Shown: in pieces, positions 12,220 to 58,044 of the stretch
Layout of the letters: each line of letters opens with the position of its first letter
Numbering within the stretch: position 1 is the stretch's first letter
Source of the DNA: Squalus acanthias
Lineage: Eukaryota
Assembly: GCA_030390025.1 (NCBI GenBank)
Contig: CM059432.1
Span: forward strand, 65,412,001 to 65,476,000
Length of the DNA stretch: 64,000 bases
Direction: 5' to 3'
The notes under the pieces: generated by a model
What the model saw: only the letters and a program-made list of their open reading frames with translations
Database searches by the model: none
Told to the model about the DNA's origin: nothing
Position numbers and translations under genes: made by a program

Positions 12220-13072
12220 GGGGCGGGGGGGGGGATTTTGCCAGCCCTGGGGAGGCGGGTTTGAAGGTGGGACTGCCGGGAAAATGTCAGAATCTGGGGG
12301 CGGGTGCCCATCCCACCTCCAACCCGCCTCTGTGCCAGCTTCCCAGGAGGCGGGTACCCGACCCGCGTTGGGAGCTGCCTCCCCGAGGCGGGAAGGGGAT
12401 TACAGCCACTTAACTGCCTGTTAATAGCTAGTTAACAGGCAGTTAAGAGGATTATCCCCATTTTACCCCTGCAAGTGTGGGCTTCCCAATGTCGGGAAAA
12501 TCCGCCAGGATCAACTAGGCGAGCAGTGGGTCTGCGGGGGTTGAGGGGGTCGAAAAGTGCACTGTGGAAGTAAGTGATGGGTGCAAGTGTGGAGAGGTAA
12601 GTGTGTGAGGTGAGTGTAAAGTGATAGAAAATGTTTACTTACCTTTGTTTCTTCCTGCAGGCTTCAACAGTTGGGGAACCAAAGATTCCTGCATCTCACC
12701 GGCAGAGATGGCAGATGGCTGCTGCATTCTCCGATGCAACAGCCATCTGATTTCTGCTCAGCAGATAGGTTTGATGAGTCTTGAATACAAGGACTCATCA
12801 AATAACAGAGAATGTCAGTGTTTGACAGCTTCACAGAGCTGTCAAACGATGATAATTCATCTGTCAAAAATTTTTGACAGATGAAACGTCATACGCTGAC
12901 GTTCTCTGTTACCGGCTTTCCCTTAATTGGCCTGCTAAGCCCGCTGGGCGGGCTTAACAAGGTCAATCAAGGGAAAATAGCATGGGTTGGCCACAAGTCG
13001 ATGGAGGCGGGACTAAAACTCGACAAGTGGGAGTCCCGCCTCCAAAAGCTCCCCATTGGCAAAATCCAGCCC
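12220..13072. mobile_element. Harbinger-type MITE family A, copy 1
   Basis: Ends GG..GATTTTGCCA / TGGCAAAATCCAGCCC; TSD TGT; homologous to 38253-39063, 43481-44324 and 46181-46880. Confidence 0.85.
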
Positions 13073-27400: not shown

Positions 27401-27747
27401 GTAATTTTTGATTTAGCGTGTATTAGGATATTTGACTGGTAATGTAACAGATTAGCAGTTGTTTGACGCTTTCAGGTGTGAAGTTTCTGAGATCACACTT
27501 GCAGGTGTGATGCTTTTGAAAGGTGTGACATTACAAATGTGTGTTAGACAAGACTTTTAATTATATAATTATACATTTATATTTTAAATTGTCATGATTG
27601 GTGCTAAAGGCTTTTTGCATCAACTATTGGAAAGCCAAGTGGTTAATGTTATAACTCATGATGCGGAGATGCCGGTGTTGGACTGGGGTGGACAAAAATG
27701 AGAAGTCGCACAACACCAGGTTATAGTCCAACAGTTTTATTTGAAAT

Positions 27748-27782
27748 TACGAGCTTTCGGAGCTCTGCTCCTTCGTCAGGTA
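27748..27782 (-). ncRNA. Minimal hammerhead ribozyme motif
   Basis: UAC-CUGACGA-A-GGAGC(AGA)GCUCC-GAA-AGCU-C-GUA. Confidence 0.75.
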
Positions 27783-27793
27783 CAGTGAGGCTG

Positions 27794-27828
27794 TACCTGA
27801 TGAAGGAGCAGAGCTCCGAAAGCTCGTA
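27794..27828 (+). ncRNA. Minimal hammerhead ribozyme motif
   Basis: UAC-CUGAUGA-A-GGAGC(AGA)GCUCC-GAA-AGCU-C-GUA. Confidence 0.75.
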
Positions 27829-28984
27829 ATTTCAAATAAAACTGTTGGACTATAACCTGGTGTTGTGCGACTTCTCATCAATGTTATAACTACTACTAGA
27901 TAAGGAAAACAACTCCTATCTCTGAAGAGTCAAAAATTTGATATTCAAAGAAAGCCAGTTTCAAGCAACAGTGCAGTACATTGAGTATGAGTAACAATAC
28001 AGCATCTATTTTCTAATCATCTTTCTATGTGCATTTCAAACAGATTGGGAAATCTCAGTGCTCTGGCATAAAATTAAGAAATTAATATGGAGGAGTGTGA
28101 CAAGGAGTTAAACTATGAGAGTTGCACGCCCAGATGACAGTGATGTAATATGGGTATCCTTTGATCTTTGACCCATTTCAGGGTATATTTCTCATGGACA
28201 CAGATTTTCTCTCTTACAAGCATCATTCCTATTAGGAACAAGAGCAATTCAAACTATAGTGACTGTTATATTTTTGATAAGATTTTAAGTTTGATGAGTA
28301 ACAATGCACAGAAATTGCTGTTAATTATAGAATTACAGTGTAATAGCGCATAGTTTTTTCTACTAAAATACTGTTCATGTTGAATTAAGGTTACTTACTT
28401 TACTTCATTTAATTACAGAATGCAATATTAAGCCTTTGATGCTTACTGTTACAAACTGTTCTACTTAAATATTCAACCAGCAAAATAAAGCTGTGTTACA
28501 CTAAGTGCTTATGTGAGGAAATAGTTTCCTGGAAACCCATCCAAATTTAATTGAAGTAAACATTCTCCATATTACCATCTGGCGACAGCTGGAGTGACTT
28601 GAGCTCAATTCCAGATTTTCCTGACTTGTGCTGACAACCTTTTAGTGGTTGCAATGCTTAATTAGTCCTGGACCTCAGTGTTACACCAGAGAAGCAGAAG
28701 GTAAAGGCACAGGACAATGTCCTAGATTTGACAATTAAGATCTCTTTTCTGAAGAACTGCTTTCATTCACGAACGACAAAAATGCGACTCAAAATATAAA
28801 CCTATTAATCATGGAATGATACAGCACAGAAGGAGGCCATTCGGCCCATCGTTCTTGTGCCAGTATAATATTTTTTCTCCTGTAAGGATGAGAAACAGTA
28901 CCATTCAAACCTTTAGTTATACTTTTAGCATCAGTGCGATCCACAGGGGAAGAATGACTCCAGTCACTGTGTGTGGGGATATCA

Positions 28985-30139: not shown

Positions 30140-30327
30140 AAAAGAAAGTGAATGCTGGAAATCTGAAATAAAGGCAGAAAATGCTGGACAGGCACAGCAA
30201 GTCTGTCAACATCTGCTAGAGAAACCAGGTTAATATATTGGGTGGAGCCCTTCATCAGAAATGTTGATCTCTAGTTCTCTTTCAGATGCTGACTGACCAG
30301 TACACTACCAGCGTTTTCTACATTTAT
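30140..30327. mobile_element. Old inverted Penelope-like pLTR fragment with decayed hammerhead
   Basis: Left arm resembles 2740-2840 (minus strand CTGATGAAGGG..CCC, GAAA lost); right arm GAAATGTTGATCT...CAGATGCTGACTGACC is the inverted copy. Confidence 0.6.
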
Positions 30328-30447
30328 AAAGTAGAAAGTCTAAAGCATTATTTTTACAACATATGTAAGTGCACAACAAAGGTGGTGACATTTTCAGAGT
30401 TAGTGAAAGCAAACAGTTCTTCAGAAAAGAGATCTTAAATTTTACAC

Positions 30448-34542: not shown

Positions 34543-34680
34543 GTGCAGCCTGGAAGTTGCTGTCTATCAGCATTTTGGGAGATGTACTGCACCAAATGAC
34601 AATCACAGTCTGACATTGGTACATGCTGGGAGTTGTACTGAGCAACCTGATTGAGTCTGCACTGATGTCGATGACATAAT

Positions 34681-35411
34681 GGGCCAGATATTCCGATCCC
34701 TACGGGTGTGTACGCGCTGTGTACCCACCTGTAGGGACATCGGAAATGCCGGTTTCAGGCATGTGCTGGAAACCGGCATTTCCGATCTGTCAAGAATGGT
34801 CTTGACAGATCCTCCGGCTGCCCTGGAGCAGGGCCTCTGCGGGAGGATAGTTCCGCTTTTTGGAGACCCTCCACCCGCAGAAAACCCTTACAATTCAGGC
34901 GTAAGGCCTGCTTTTACCAGGATAAGAGTTGAAAAAAGTTTTTTTTTTTAAATTTCCACTGATTTATCCTTTAAAAATACTTTAAAAAAAGTACGTTTAT
35001 TTTTAGCCTCGTAAAAAACTTTAATTATTTTTTTGAAAAATGTGAAGTTTTGTTTAAAATAGTTAATTTATTGTACTTTCAAGTCATTTTAAAAATGTGA
35101 TTTAAAAAAAAAAATGTATTTAAAGTTTTACTATGTTTTGGGGGTGATCTCTATTCATATATTTGACAGGTCTTCCTGTCAAATGTATGAAGGGAGATTC
35201 CATTCTTTGATTGGCTCCCCATGGCCCACGTGATTCCAGGGACGCTGCGAACCGCCTGCGCCTCTGGGATACGTGGGCCCTGCACACCGGCAGTTTGGAG
35301 AGGCCCAGCATCGGAACTCTGCGCCTCCCGGGAGCCCTCAGGTCAGGGCGCAGATTTTTACAGATCGCAGTCCTCCGCCCACGGGAAGCCTGCGATTGGA
35401 ATATCTGGGCC
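34681..35411. mobile_element. Harbinger-type MITE family D, copy 1
   Basis: TIRs GGGCCAGATATTCC / GGAATATCTGGGCC; TSD AAT; highly similar to 56983-57705. Confidence 0.9.
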
Positions 35412-38252: not shown

Positions 38253-39063
38253 GGGGGAGATTTTGCCAGCCCTGGGGAGGCGGGACTGCCGAGAAAATGA
38301 CAGAATCTGGGGACGGGTACCCAACCCGCCTCCGTGCCAGCTTCCCAGGAGGCGGGTACCCGACCCGCGCCGGGTCCCGTCTCCTGGAGGCGGGAAGGGG
38401 ATTACAGCCACTTAACTGTCTGTTAACAGGCAGTTAAGAGGATTATCCCCATTTTTCTAACAGAGGCGCGGGCTTCCCGACATCGGGAAACCCCGCCAGG
38501 GTCACCGAGGTGAGCAGTGGGTCTGCGGGGGTTGGAGGGGTGCAAAAGTGCGCTGTGGAGGTGAGTGATGGGTGCAAGTGTGGCGAGGTAAGTATGTGAG
38601 GTGAGTGAAAAGTCTTAGAAAATGTTTACTTACCTTTGTTTCTTCCTGCAGGCTTCAACAGTTGGGGAACCGAAGACTCCCGCATCTCACCGGCAGAGAT
38701 AACAGATGGCTGCGGCATTCTCCGATGCAATAGCCATCTGATTTCTGCTCAGCAGGTAGGTTTGATGAGTCTTGAATACAAGGACTCATCAAACAACAGA
38801 GAATGTCAGTGTTTGACAGCTTCATAGAGCTGTCAAATGATGACAATTCATCTGTCAAAAATTTTTGACAGATGAAACGTCATACGCTGACATTCTCTGT
38901 AACCGGCTTCCCCTTAATTGGCCTGCTAAGCCCACTGGGTGGGCGTAACAAGGTCAATCAAGGGAAAATAGTGTGGGTTGGCCACAAGTCGATGGAGGTG
39001 GGCCTATAACCCGACAAGCAGCAGTCCCGCCTCCAACGTGCCCCCATTGGCAAAATAACCCCC
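38253..39063. mobile_element. MITE family A, copy 2
   Basis: TIRs GGGGGAGATTTTGCCA / TGGCAAAATAACCCCC; TSD AGA; L2-like sequence follows on the right. Confidence 0.9.
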
Positions 39064-42450: not shown

Positions 42451-42619
42451 AAAATGTCAGGTTTAAGTTCCAGTAGAAGTACTGAAGATATTGCTGAGCA
42501 CAACATATGCATCATGTTCAAATTTTATTTAGTATATATATATATGGTGATATATTTGTGTCCCAATAATTTTAAATATGTATAAACTTAAGGACCTTGG
42601 TCTATTTACTTACCTAAAC

Positions 42620-42709
42620 TTACCTGCCGAAGGAGCGAACTGCTCCGAAAGCTTGTAAAATTAAATAAATCTGTTGGACTATAACCTGGTGTTGTGCGAC
42701 TTCTCATTT
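42620..42709 (+). mobile_element. Single-arm copy of the 27.8 kb Penelope-like pLTR, hammerhead core mutated
   Basis: TTAC-CTGCCGA-A-GGAGC(GAACT)GCTCC-GAA-AGCT-T-GTAA, then CTGTTGGACTATAACCTGGTGTTGTGCGACTTCTCAT identical to 27842-27878. Confidence 0.85.
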
Positions 42710-42714
42710 TTATT

Positions 42715-43480: not shown

Positions 43481-44324
43481 GGGCTCAATTTTCACCGGCC
43501 CGTGGAGGCGGGTTTGGAGGCGGGAGTGGTGTGAAAATAGCAGATTCGGGGGTCCCGAACCCATCCCGCCCCCAACCCACCTCCATTCCAGTTTCCCAGG
43601 AGGCGGGTACCCAACCTGTGCTGAGACCCGCCTCCCCGAGGCGGGAAAGGGATTAGTGCCAATAAACTGCCTGTTAACAGGTAGTTAACAGGCAGTTTTT
43701 TGCCTAATCCCTATTTTTAGCCCTGAAGTGTGGGTTTCCTGACAGGTCCGAACCACACCGATTTAGTGAGGCGGACCGTCAGTCTGGAGGGCTTGGAGGG
43801 GTCGAGATGTCCGGTGTGCAGGTGAGTGATGGGTGCATGAGTGCAGAGGTAAGGGTGTTTGGTGTGTGTAAAGTGTTTTAAGAACTTTTACTTACCTTAA
43901 CTTTGTCCTGCAGGCTAGCTTCCTTAAGGTGTCGGGAGTCCCTCACATCCACGGCACAGAAAGCAGAATGGCCGCGGAGCTGTCAAAAGCTGCAGTCTCT
44001 GCTTTCTGTGCTGGATTGATTTCTAACTGAGTCTAAGTACAGGGACTCAAGTTAGAAATCATATTGTCAGTGTTTGACAGCTTCACAGAGCTGTCAAACG
44101 CTGAAATTTCTTCTGTCAAAAGCTCTTGACAGATGAAATTTCAATGGCTGACGTCACCTGTATCCAAGGGACCCTTGATTGGCCTGCTAAGCCCGCTGGG
44201 CGGGCTTAACAAGGTCAATCAAGGGAAAGTACAGTGGGTTGGCCACAAGTCGATGGAGGCGGGACTACAACCCAAAATGTGGGAGTCCCGCCTCCATCAC
44301 ATCCCCATTGACAAAATCCAGCCC
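43481..44324. mobile_element. MITE family A, copy 3 (diverged subfamily)
   Basis: TIRs GGGCTCAATTTT / AAAATCCAGCCC; TSD ATG. Confidence 0.88.
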
Positions 44325-45362: not shown

Positions 45363-46180
45363 CAATTTAAATGTTTTTTAATTAAAATGTCTCATTATAC
45401 TAAACATAACTATGAGCATTCACTGAGTTTATAATCGAATAAATACAACTCCATGTATTTCAATAGATTTGTAATCTGTCTCATTAAAACTCTACTAATT
45501 TCAAGGAGCTTGCAATCTGCCTCCCTGTAATAAACCAATCTCCTGTCATTACAGTTAACTTACAATTGGTGCTTTTTCTTGCAAACCCTTGACAATGACA
45601 ACATTTTAAAGCCCCTTCATCGCTTGACCTGTAAAATGCATTGTAATTGACTTCATCTATTCTGCGTGCATTACCAGGACAGCTCCATTTTGTTTTAATG
45701 GTTACCTCAGATATCATGTATGTAAGAAATTCCATATATGCAGAGTTATGTTCCAATGATCCACTGGAGATTCAAGCTCTGTTTTGAAATTCTGGTAATT
45801 TGAATGGATTCCAGATTTAGTCTTAATTGCGGTACATTCATACATTCAGCAAGCACTTTTCTTCATCAGTGTAGAAATAATGATGAAAGTTACAATGTTG
45901 AGTAAAAACAGGACTGATTTGATAAACTGTCAAATTGTTGCATTTTGCACAGATCTTTCCCAATTAAATACATCAAATTAAATGACAACACTGCATGTAT
46001 CTGAGTAATTATGTTGCTTAAACAGAAAATATAAATTGTATTTTGAAAAGAAAATCTGTTTGTTTTTATAACAGTCCTAATTGTTCAGATTTTTTGTAAG
46101 AGATATCTTTCCCATTCTTAAAATACATTTTGTTGATGGAGCCCAGTTTCATCATTCCATAGACTAGAGAAAGAGGCAGA

Positions 46181-46950
46181 GGGGACGATTTTGCCAGCCC
46201 TCGGGAGGCGGGTATGGAGACGGGACTGCCGGGGTGGGTACCCATCCCGCCCCCAACCCGCCTCCGTGCCATCTTCCCAGGAGGCGGGTACCCGACCCGC
46301 ACTGGGAGCTGCCTCCTCGAGGCGGGAAGGGGATTAGTGCCAATTAACTGCCTGTTAACAGGTAGTTAACAGGCAGTTTTTTGGATAATCCCTATTTTCC
46401 CAGCTAAAGTGTGGGCTTCCTGACGGCTCCGAACCTCGCCAAGATCAGCGAGGCGAGCCGTGGGTCTGCAGGGGTCAGAGGGGCCGAGATGTCCGGTGTG
46501 CAGGTGAGTGATGGGTGCATGTGTGCAGAGGTAAGTGTGTGAGGTGAGTCTTAAGTGTTTTAAAAGCTTTACTTACCTTTGCTTCTTCCTCCAGGCTTCA
46601 TCCCTTCAGGTCTCGGGAGTCCCTCATCTCACCGGCACAGAAAGCAGAATGACCGCTGCATTCTCAAATGCACCAGCCTTCTGCTTTCTGCTCAGGACAG
46701 ATCTCTAACTGAGCCTGTGTCCCAGGACTCAACTTAGAAGACAGATTGTCAGTGTTTGACAGCTTCACAGAGCTGTCAAACAATGACAATTCTTCTGTCA
46801 AAAGCTCTTGACAGATGAAACGTCACTCGTTTGATGTCATAGTAACCAGCTTTCCCTTAATTGGCCTGCTAAGCCCGCTGGTCCATTTCAAAGGCGGTAT
46901 GACAGCGTACTCTGAGAGTACGCTGCCATACCCACCGCAAATTCTGGCTC
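46181..46950. mobile_element. Chimeric MITE: family A left part plus family B right end
   Basis: 46181-46880 aligns with family A; 46881-46950 aligns with 24421-24490. Confidence 0.85.
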
Positions 46951-56884: not shown

Positions 56885-58044
56885 ACACAAATACTGTGGA
56901 TGCTGGCAGTCTGAAATAAAAAAAGAAAATGCTGGAAATACTCAGCAGGTCAGTCAGCATCTGAGAGAGATACAGAGTTAATGGCCCAGATATTCCGATC
57001 CCTACGGGTGGGTACGCGCTGTGTACCCACCCGTAGGGACATCGGATATGCCGGTTTCAGGCATGCACAGCGCATGCGCTGAAAACCGGCATTTCCGATC
57101 TGTCAAGGGCCTCTGCGGGCGGATAGTTCTTCATTTTGGAGACCCTCTGCCCACAGAAAACCCTTACAATTCTTACACCTGGTAAAAGCAGGTGTAAGGC
57201 CTGCTTTTACCAGGATAAGAGTTGAAAAAAGTAAAAAAACACATTTTTTCACTGATTTATCATTTAAAAATACTTTTAAAAAAAGGTAAGTTTATTTTTA
57301 GCCCCGTAAAAAACTTTAATTATTTTTTTCAGAAAATTACATTTTTGTTTAAAATACTTAATTTATTGTAATTTCAAGTCATTTTAAAAATGTGATGTTT
57401 TTTAAAAAATTTATTTAAAGTTTTACTATGTTTTTGGAGTGATCTCCATTCATATATTTGACAGGTCTTCCTGTCAAGTGTATGAAGGGAGATTCCCTTC
57501 TTTGATTGGCTCCCCATGGCCCACGTGATCCCAGGGACGCTGCGAACTGCCTGCGCCTCTGGGATACGTGGGCCCCGCGCATTTGGAGTTTGGAGAGCCG
57601 CAGGAGTGGAAGTGTGTGCACCCAGGAGCCCTCAGGTAAGGGTGTAGATTTTTCCAGATCGTAGGCCTCTGCCCGGGGGAGGCCTGCGATCGGAAAATAC
57701 AGGCCAATGTTTCAGGTCGATGACCTTTCATCAGAACTGGAAAATGTTACAGATGTAACAGGTTTTAAGCAAGTACAGAGGCAGGGAAAGGGGGGATGGA
57801 AGGAAAGAACAAAAGGAAAGGTCTTCGATAGGGTGGAAGGCAGGAGAGATTAAATGACAAAAGGAATGATGGTACAAGGCAAAAGGGGATGGTAATGGGA
57901 CAAGTAAAGAAACAAAAGATGGGTTTAGAGGAGGTGTAAATGGCAATAGCAGAATCATTACCAACAGCTGCTGTCCAAAAAAATGGGAGCAGTGGTTATG
58001 ATCAGACCATCACCCTTTGCCTTGCACCATCATCCCTTTTGTCA
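56885..58044 (-). mobile_element. Penelope-like pLTR fragment split by a MITE, with a short terminal inversion
   Basis: Matches 2740-3105; 58006-58044 is an inverted copy of ~57855-57893. Confidence 0.85.
56983..57705. mobile_element. MITE family D, copy 2
   Basis: TIRs GGCCCAGATATTCCGATC / GATCGGAAAATACAGGCC; TSD AAT. Confidence 0.9.

Follow-up and report, generated by a model that had tools for sequence, protein, structure and literature searches.

The insertion at positions 27645-27891 of the window, the whole 64,000-nucleotide stretch of DNA analysed here, is composed of a pLTR end, a 41-bp tail, and an inverted pLTR of a Neptune/Nematis-type Penelope-like element (PLE). Hairpins of this family were probably made by twin priming on a sense, unspliced, capped element RNA, two cDNAs reaching the RNA 5′ end and being joined there. 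Taken alone, the locus is a commonplace by-product of a PLE, a promoterless and likely dead-end insertion of an endonuclease-bearing PLE, and the significance sits in the hairpin population. Thousands of short hairpins naturally record both products of individual insertion events, preserving a cap-like base, coupled arm lengths, and a step in the agreement between arms. They bear on the origin of head-to-head inverted PLE ends, from a sense or an antisense template, a question that PMC3846280 does not settle and that PMC8557442 describes as undefined. The features of the insertion are as follows.

27645-27656, no strand: left copy of the target-site duplication (TSD), AATGTTATAACT, 12 bp
27657-27697, minus strand: PLE tail, 41 bp, whose final ATG is the start of the 892-aa ORF of full-length copies
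27698-27790, minus strand: main arm, the 3′ part of the pLTR, beginning at -11 (numbered from C3 of the core) and including the hammerhead and AATAAA
27751-27779, minus strand: minimal type I hammerhead motif with a CUGACGA core, predicted cleavage between 27751 and 27750
27780-27796: head-to-head junction, main arm end at -11 and inverted arm end at -6
27791-27878, plus strand: inverted arm, a second pLTR end without tail, outer end at CTTCTCAT
27797-27825, plus strand: minimal type I hammerhead motif with a CUGAUGA core, predicted cleavage after 27825
27880-27891, no strand: right copy of the TSD, AATGTTATAACT, 12 bp

The first-pass annotation of this DNA had described a 12-bp TSD, a 223-bp insert, and 88-bp arms with one mismatch, all of which were confirmed in the window sequence. 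The insert (27657-27879) lies between the only two copies of AATGTTATAACT present in the window, and the arms (27698-27785 and 27791-27878; 88 nt each) are 99% complementary. The mismatch falls, as annotated, at the variable core position, position 7 (T27801 on the plus strand, C on the minus strand), and T27801 is a C-to-T change at a CpG. The minus strand reads inverted arm, junction, main arm, and 41-bp tail with its terminal ATG. The 3′ end of the tail and the outer end of the inverted arm at CTTCTCAT would be the first and second reverse-transcription starts, respectively; C27791, the first base of the inverted arm, may also be cap-templated and is ambiguous at this locus. The main arm and tail are identical to a promoter-bearing copy, L092, at 129/129 bp (100%), indicating that the insertion is young. 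The folding energy of the hairpin RNA is -184.2 kcal/mol (z -27.5), and 0 of 200 shuffles folded equally well.

A hammerhead motif had been annotated on each strand, and parsing of the sequence bore this out for both cores (27797-27825, plus strand; 27779-27751, minus strand). Each arm combines a helix I of 3 bp and a helix II of 5 bp with the sequences CUGANGA and GAAA, an additional A, and the palindrome AGCU. An Rfam search of the hairpin returned no hammerhead family match and one sub-threshold miRNA-hairpin match only; the motif is therefore based on hand parsing and family covariation. In an alignment of 47 distinct promoter-bearing copies, 96% of the stem cells were paired, the core was nearly invariant, a U-A/C-G swap was present in helix I of 17 copies, and loop II varied from 3 to 9 nt. 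These copies are related to one another, which inflated the shuffle control, and the covariation supports the predicted hammerhead fold without proving it. The antisense arm precedes the hammerhead on both strands of the hairpin. The annotation's proposal that the ribozyme could mask itself in a read-through transcript agrees with modelling, in which forcing the hammerhead fold costs 62 to 66 kcal/mol; read-through from a host gene would thus yield a masked ribozyme in a duplex of ~90 bp. At about one 90-bp hairpin per 0.5 Mb, the family may, judging from its copy number, be a source of dsRNA in the host.

The PLE origin of the hairpin also held, since its pLTR end and tail match a family with an 892-aa ORF partner. 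Extension of the tail past its ATG led to a tandem of 3142-bp units, in which the 892-aa ORF starts at that ATG. The ORF contains an RVT_1 domain (E 3e-8), DKG and YIDD, the motifs VVYLIRCRKECTAAWYIG and LRQRMNEH, and a GIY-YIG-like C terminus; Pfam gave no nuclease score in the 892-aa query itself, and many relatives carry PF01541. Its nearest named relatives are shark proteins (80-94% identity). A CX2-5CxxC linker between RT and EN characterizes the Neptune and Nematis clades (PMC8557442), and the CX5CxxC linker found here (CHGKLCKTC, residue 753) points to one or the other of these two. The family thus combines an RVT_1-containing 892-aa ORF, a 3142-bp tandem, an inverted copy at 54 of 92 tails, a 41-bp tail, and a TSD, as expected of an EN+ PLE. 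TSD length was 12 to 13 bp, the mode of the family, in 80 of 119 hairpins, and copies with distinct TSDs, which the annotation had proposed to look for, were found among these 119. Intact, near-identical 892-aa ORFs occur in tandem arrays on two contigs (L151:1467-7287 and L152:3029-5707), which, on sequence grounds, suggests that the PLE is active at present.

Exact matches to a 35-nt motif of the tail number 7,593 across the 3.7-Gb genome. A pattern search retrieved 7,533 hairpins (59 + 1,444 + 6,030), a lower bound since the pattern demanded exact flanks of 15 to 16 nt separated by 40 to 70 nt. In five loci (L046, L084, L097, L016, and L154), a further pLTR piece directly follows a tailed hairpin or short copy; these compound insertions suggest repeated priming at one site. 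EN+ PLEs typically retain a spliceosomal intron close to the pLTR. A stretch of ~68 nt of the form GT(A/G)A...CCCCAG looks intron-like by eye (L151:4509-4587; window 27683-27750, minus strand). It starts just after the predicted cleavage site, its removal would drop AATAAA before the ORF, and the second priming site falls at its branch-point-like CTCAT. No spliced copy was present among the examined loci, and no splice joint was found in the contigs of four presumed-RNA runs covering the family.

Two sets of copies were used to map the ends of the arms, both drawn from the first matches listed and mostly located on contigs C1-C2. The tail set comprised 92 of the first 100 tail matches listed, picked regardless of their 5′ side. 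The second set comprised 117 pattern-chosen hairpins (120 minus one duplicate and two of unclear orientation); its patterns force the pivot to lie within 25 nt, so that only the 92-copy set informs on a hot spot. Among the matches listed, an adjacent inverted arm was present in 54 of the 92 tail-anchored copies, with its outer end at +1 to +14 of CTCATTTTT in 51 of the 54, and the tail ended 8 to 12 nt past GGCATC in 65 of the 92. Outer ends thus form two clusters, one at the ATG that ends the tail and the other ~40 nt upstream. In longer copies, TATATA begins 37 to 48 nt ahead of C3 (20 of 21 references) and is accompanied by an Inr-like TCACT, a TATA and Inr-like pair described for a rotifer PLE (PMC3846280). 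This TATA/Inr region is kept in 38 of the 92 main arms among the matches listed and is absent from the hairpins.

The annotation had taken randomly placed inversion points as the mark of one-off abortive insertions, and the pivot proved to be nonrandom. Among the matches listed, 46 of 146 inner arm ends lie at -15 to -1 before C3, ~30 nt after the TATA box, and 21 lie within the motif (0 to +14). The hazard of an inner end was 0.25 to 0.33 per 10 nt at the pile-up versus 0.01 to 0.07 upstream. Cleavage by the ribozyme was rejected as the cause of the pivot, because a single end of the 146 fell at the predicted cleavage site (+27 to +33), with no pile-up there. In the 117 hairpins, the modal arm end was -7, the A of the Inr-like motif, ~31 nt after TATA. 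The pivot therefore matches the start of transcription predicted from the sequence, not the cleavage site. In the TACCT(T/C)TAC lineages of the GTAA set, the modal end was -10 (20 of 76 arms), on a GTAC palindrome, and this mode fits joining at the palindrome equally well. The two arms of a copy end in a coupled manner: among 54 pairs, both ends were in the interval -16 to +25 in 29 pairs, one only in 3, and neither in 22 (p 8e-12).

An extra base marks the -7 end. In the 117 hairpins, the base following this end was G in 65 of 76 arms, and the genomic base at -8 was never G in 57 promoter-bearing copies (T, C, or A). At -7 junctions with at least two filler bases, excluding bases of the partner arm, G was found in 18 of 21 cases, versus 18 of 59 at other ends (p 2e-5). 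The extra G was present on both arms in four hairpins (L174, L206, L209, and L253). Reverse transcriptase can copy the cap into an extra base. An untemplated G has been taken as the transcript start in work on LINEs (PMC3510499). The G is likely the footprint of a cap, both transcription start and cap being deduced from DNA; RT can add C at any template end, so that the G is better evidence of a 5′ end than of a cap. This evidence comes mostly from the ACTTCAC lineage. At 27645-27891, the junction G is also part of the partner arm, and in the lineage of this locus G precedes CCTCAC in 6 of 18 listed nonpromoter contexts, mostly ambiguous ones. The extra G favours twin priming on sense RNA over the published self-priming on antisense RNA.

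In the twin-priming scheme, transcription would start 7 to 11 nt before the core under the control of the TATA/Inr promoter, a staggered cut of 12 to 13 nt would open the target, and both cut strands would prime reverse transcription on sense RNA. Short hairpins would result from priming at the pLTR-ORF junction nearest the cap, and long inverted copies from priming on a read-through RNA at its downstream pLTR. The two cDNAs would be joined through 1 to 4 nt of microhomology or through filler. The hammerhead was copied intact, implying that the template was uncleaved or religated. Sense twin priming, together with a possible role of the hammerhead, is testable with the intact ORF from the same genome. 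One junction type counts against twin priming by its asymmetry, the main arm being the complete one in 17 hairpins versus 3, and some fold-back would give the same.

Fold-back was the best surviving alternative and is nonetheless unlikely. It would have an antisense RNA (as in PMC3846280) or one cDNA fold near the ribozyme and be copied into the inverted arm. Perfect or near-perfect palindromic junctions, with GTAC overlaps and, in L073 and L107, junctions inside helix II, are what it predicts, as are the completeness of the main arm in 17 of 20 hairpins of the asymmetric junction type, the concordance of 3′ markers between arms in >97%, and the near symmetry of some long pairs (-295/-307, -194/-179, -211/-221, and -90/-92). 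It does not account for the extra G on both arms of four hairpins or for arms that differ in alleles at multiple sites. In the 117 hairpins, the inverted arm was longer in 42, the main arm in 58, and the two were equal in 17; fold-back of one tail-primed cDNA cannot give a longer inverted arm, and this count therefore favours two cDNAs. Self-priming on antisense RNA meets the further difficulty that the G is located at the start of the sense transcript, a position that an antisense template would leave unmarked. In its Discussion, PMC3846280 prefers self-priming on antisense RNA, of which it takes palindromes at the junctions to be the trace, and leaves the sense option open; the junctions of the present family point instead to 5′ ends of sense RNA.

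It is also improbable that the pivot reflects a hot spot of RT stalling or of annealing, located at the hammerhead of long RNAs, rather than an RNA end, with two identical cDNAs annealing through the ribozyme stems and being trimmed. The 21 of 146 ends inside the motif are in keeping with such stalling, and annealing of palindromes would likewise couple the arms. The peak, however, is found on the 5′ side of the structure, where the Inr-like A follows TATA by ~31 nt, and is accompanied by a nongenomic G, and independent stalling predicts about half mixed pairs, of which 3 in 54 were seen.

The annotation's suggestion that the hairpin is a minimal nonautonomous, retrozyme-like unit, transcribed and moved as such or kept for dsRNA-based control, can draw on the high copy number, on a few recurring junction strings (17, 9, 9, and 7 of 117), and on the ~90-bp duplex formed if read through, but it fared poorly and is very improbable: the hairpin has no promoter, the TATA located ~40 nt before the core in longer copies being missing from it; 69 junction types in 117 hairpins, with mirror forms, reveal no fixed internal structure; the junction at 27645-27891 was found in no other examined locus; the arms are head to head, with no tandem array; and they are often unlike, a propagated unit being expected to give families of identical arm pairs.

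The mismatch between the arms at 27645-27891 is most simply explained by CpG decay, a selective story being unneeded. Genome-wide, C/C, C/T, and T/T hairpins numbered 2404, 480, and 25, versus 2403, 482, and 24 expected for independent arms, and T-bearing promoter copies exist (L045 and L069). An apparent confinement of T to the inverted arm in a first BLAST set of 30 loci was traced to query bias, since pattern-chosen hairpins had T at the core position in 29 main and 26 inverted arms. The C/T mismatch is weak as a proof of two templates: it exceeds a G/A control (480 versus 151), yet other CpGs are strand-biased by up to 11 to 3.

Non-CpG markers are more informative. Three nucleotides past the cleavage site, the arms were discordant in 59 of 7,533 hairpins (0.8%), versus 31% under random pairing. 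Within helix II, 229 GGGG/GGAG pairs were found, versus 339 and 2,404 concordant pairs (7.7%; 26% expected at random). Scoring of the first 50 GTAA and 40 GTGA hairpins listed revealed discordance of helix II in 29 of 80 scorable pairs (15 of 44 and 14 of 36, respectively); both alleles were recurrent in 20 discordant pairs, and some of the others are perhaps point changes. The AATAAAN marker was discordant in 1 of 47 GTAA and 1 of 37 GTGA hairpins, and the H17 marker in 1 of 50 and 4 of 40. In 22 parsed loci of 30 GGGG/GGAG loci, three 3′ markers differed 0, 0, and 2 times. In the tail set, non-CpG differences restricted to helix II were found in 7 of 19 short versus 0 of 17 long pairs (p 0.008), and all helix II differences combined in 8 of 19 versus 3 of 17 (p 0.16). 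The arms of L058, L063, and L092 differ on both sides, as if from two whole RNAs. Repair of a quasi-palindrome was rejected as the source of the helix II mismatch, as it fits only 4 of the 22 parsed GGGG/GGAG pairs. In a small sample at a CpG site, all seven H17-discordant hairpins (L157, L162, L189, L190, L192, L240, and L251) carried C on the main arm and T on the inverted one.

A second template thus seems to contribute near the ribozyme. It is conceivable, though somewhat short of an even chance, that in about one-third of short events one cDNA ends on the 5′ end of a second RNA after switching at the ribozyme. Minimal PLE hammerheads probably act as dimers, paired by way of a palindromic helix III, and show unusual variability (PMC4209133), which would provide a route for a second template at this site. 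More tentatively, the hammerhead may be a site of RNA pairing and template exchange rather than a cutter. Two RNAs would be held together by the palindromic AGCU helix III and by helix I in trans; both target strands would prime on one RNA, and one RT would cross to the partner at the ribozyme. Alternatively, cleavage and religation could swap capped 5′ pieces of 37 nt. Template exchange, if true, would account for the contrast between discordant arms 5′ of the cleavage site and concordant arms 3′ of it, confined to capped short hairpins, as well as for the reported hypervariability of PLE hammerheads. Competing accounts of the discordance are two RNAs from lineage-specific pools with a fast-changing helix II and short conversion patches. 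Some arms are lineage-type on both sides of an odd helix II, which a single crossover leaves unexplained, and the parsed loci did not establish a single crossover exactly at the cleavage site: L370 and L407 fit one, and L355, L357, and L360 keep lineage-type sequence upstream of their discordant helix II.

Two other elements of the window carry hammerhead-like sequences.

42617-42711, plus strand: second copy of the same PLE family, a single tail-less arm of another subfamily with a damaged core
30140-30335: old element from another family, now a decayed inverted pair, ending in a hammerhead-like sequence of its own

Alignment of the copy at 42617-42711 upheld the annotated helix I (UUAC/GUAA) and different loop II; its core reads CUGCCGA (A6 changed). 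The old element does turn at its ribozyme, as annotated, when its arms, missed by self-BLAST, are recovered by alignment to family copies. Its left arm keeps CUGAUGA and has lost GAAA, and its right arm starts at GAAA, without the core; the element thus has one decayed core only and not a hammerhead on each strand. Its repeat family is older and abundant, forms inverted pairs, and is also present in the flanks of L094, L343, and L378. Other dispersed repeat families have several copies in the window, at 12235-13072, 38320-39063, 43488-44324, and 46169-46881, and at 34677-35280 and 56979-57575.

In L1 twin priming, the second target strand primes internally, and a nongenomic G is found at complete 5′ ends. 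L1 inversions flip the upstream segment without duplicating the 3′ end, whereas here both cDNAs copy the same stretch, and the result is a hairpin. Searches of the openly accessible literature, judged mostly from listings, brought up no paper on twin priming, cap bases, coupling, or arm discordance in PLEs, and a prior description is possible.

The hairpin architecture itself is already published. The EN+ PLE insertion unit consists of a pLTR, an adjacent inverted 5′-truncated copy, a 30- to 40-bp tail, and a TSD (PMC8557442, PMC3846280), and the hairpins share with it the head-to-head inverted pLTR, the tail at one end, and the TSD, as well as TATATATA plus TCACT in the pLTR and tandem full-length units. 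Unlike in the units published there, both arms are cut back to ~90 to 130 bp, with no ORF or promoter left, in thousands of copies. With the minimal type I PLE hammerheads of PMC4209133, the motifs have in common the extra A between A9 and G10.1, the G10.1-C11.1 pair, a short helix I, a palindromic GC without loop 3, and a variable helix II. They differ from them by a 5-bp helix II, activity here being predicted from sequence, and by spacing, since opposite-strand cores are <30 nt apart, versus motif pairs 100 to 700 bp apart on opposite strands in metazoan PLEs. The mixing of alleles between arms is a feature of the present hairpins that is not described in the portion of PMC4209133 covered here. 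Non-LTR retrozymes (bioRxiv 10.64898/2026.07.22.740005, PMC7229834) are, like the hairpin, noncoding, pLTR-derived, and equipped with type I hammerheads, but they form head-to-tail tandems with at least two ribozymes on the same strand (bioRxiv 10.64898/2026.07.22.740005), whereas the hairpin is head to head with one per strand.

A biochemical parallel is provided by PAc, a Poseidon element of Anolis, for which cutting and extension of both strands from two internal sites bracketing the tail, on uncleaved RNA, have been obtained in vitro (PMC11167929). The two outer-end clusters of the family described here match those internal RT starts; AT-rich targets and the predicted dimer are common to both elements, as would be the extension of both cut strands on uncleaved RNA. 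The PAc ribozyme overlaps the start of the ORF, and reverse transcription begins 111 to 118 nt into that ORF (PMC11167929), whereas here the ribozyme is situated ~90 nt upstream and the ATG forms the end of the tail; the 892-aa partner has the CX2-5CxxC linker, and Poseidon is without it.
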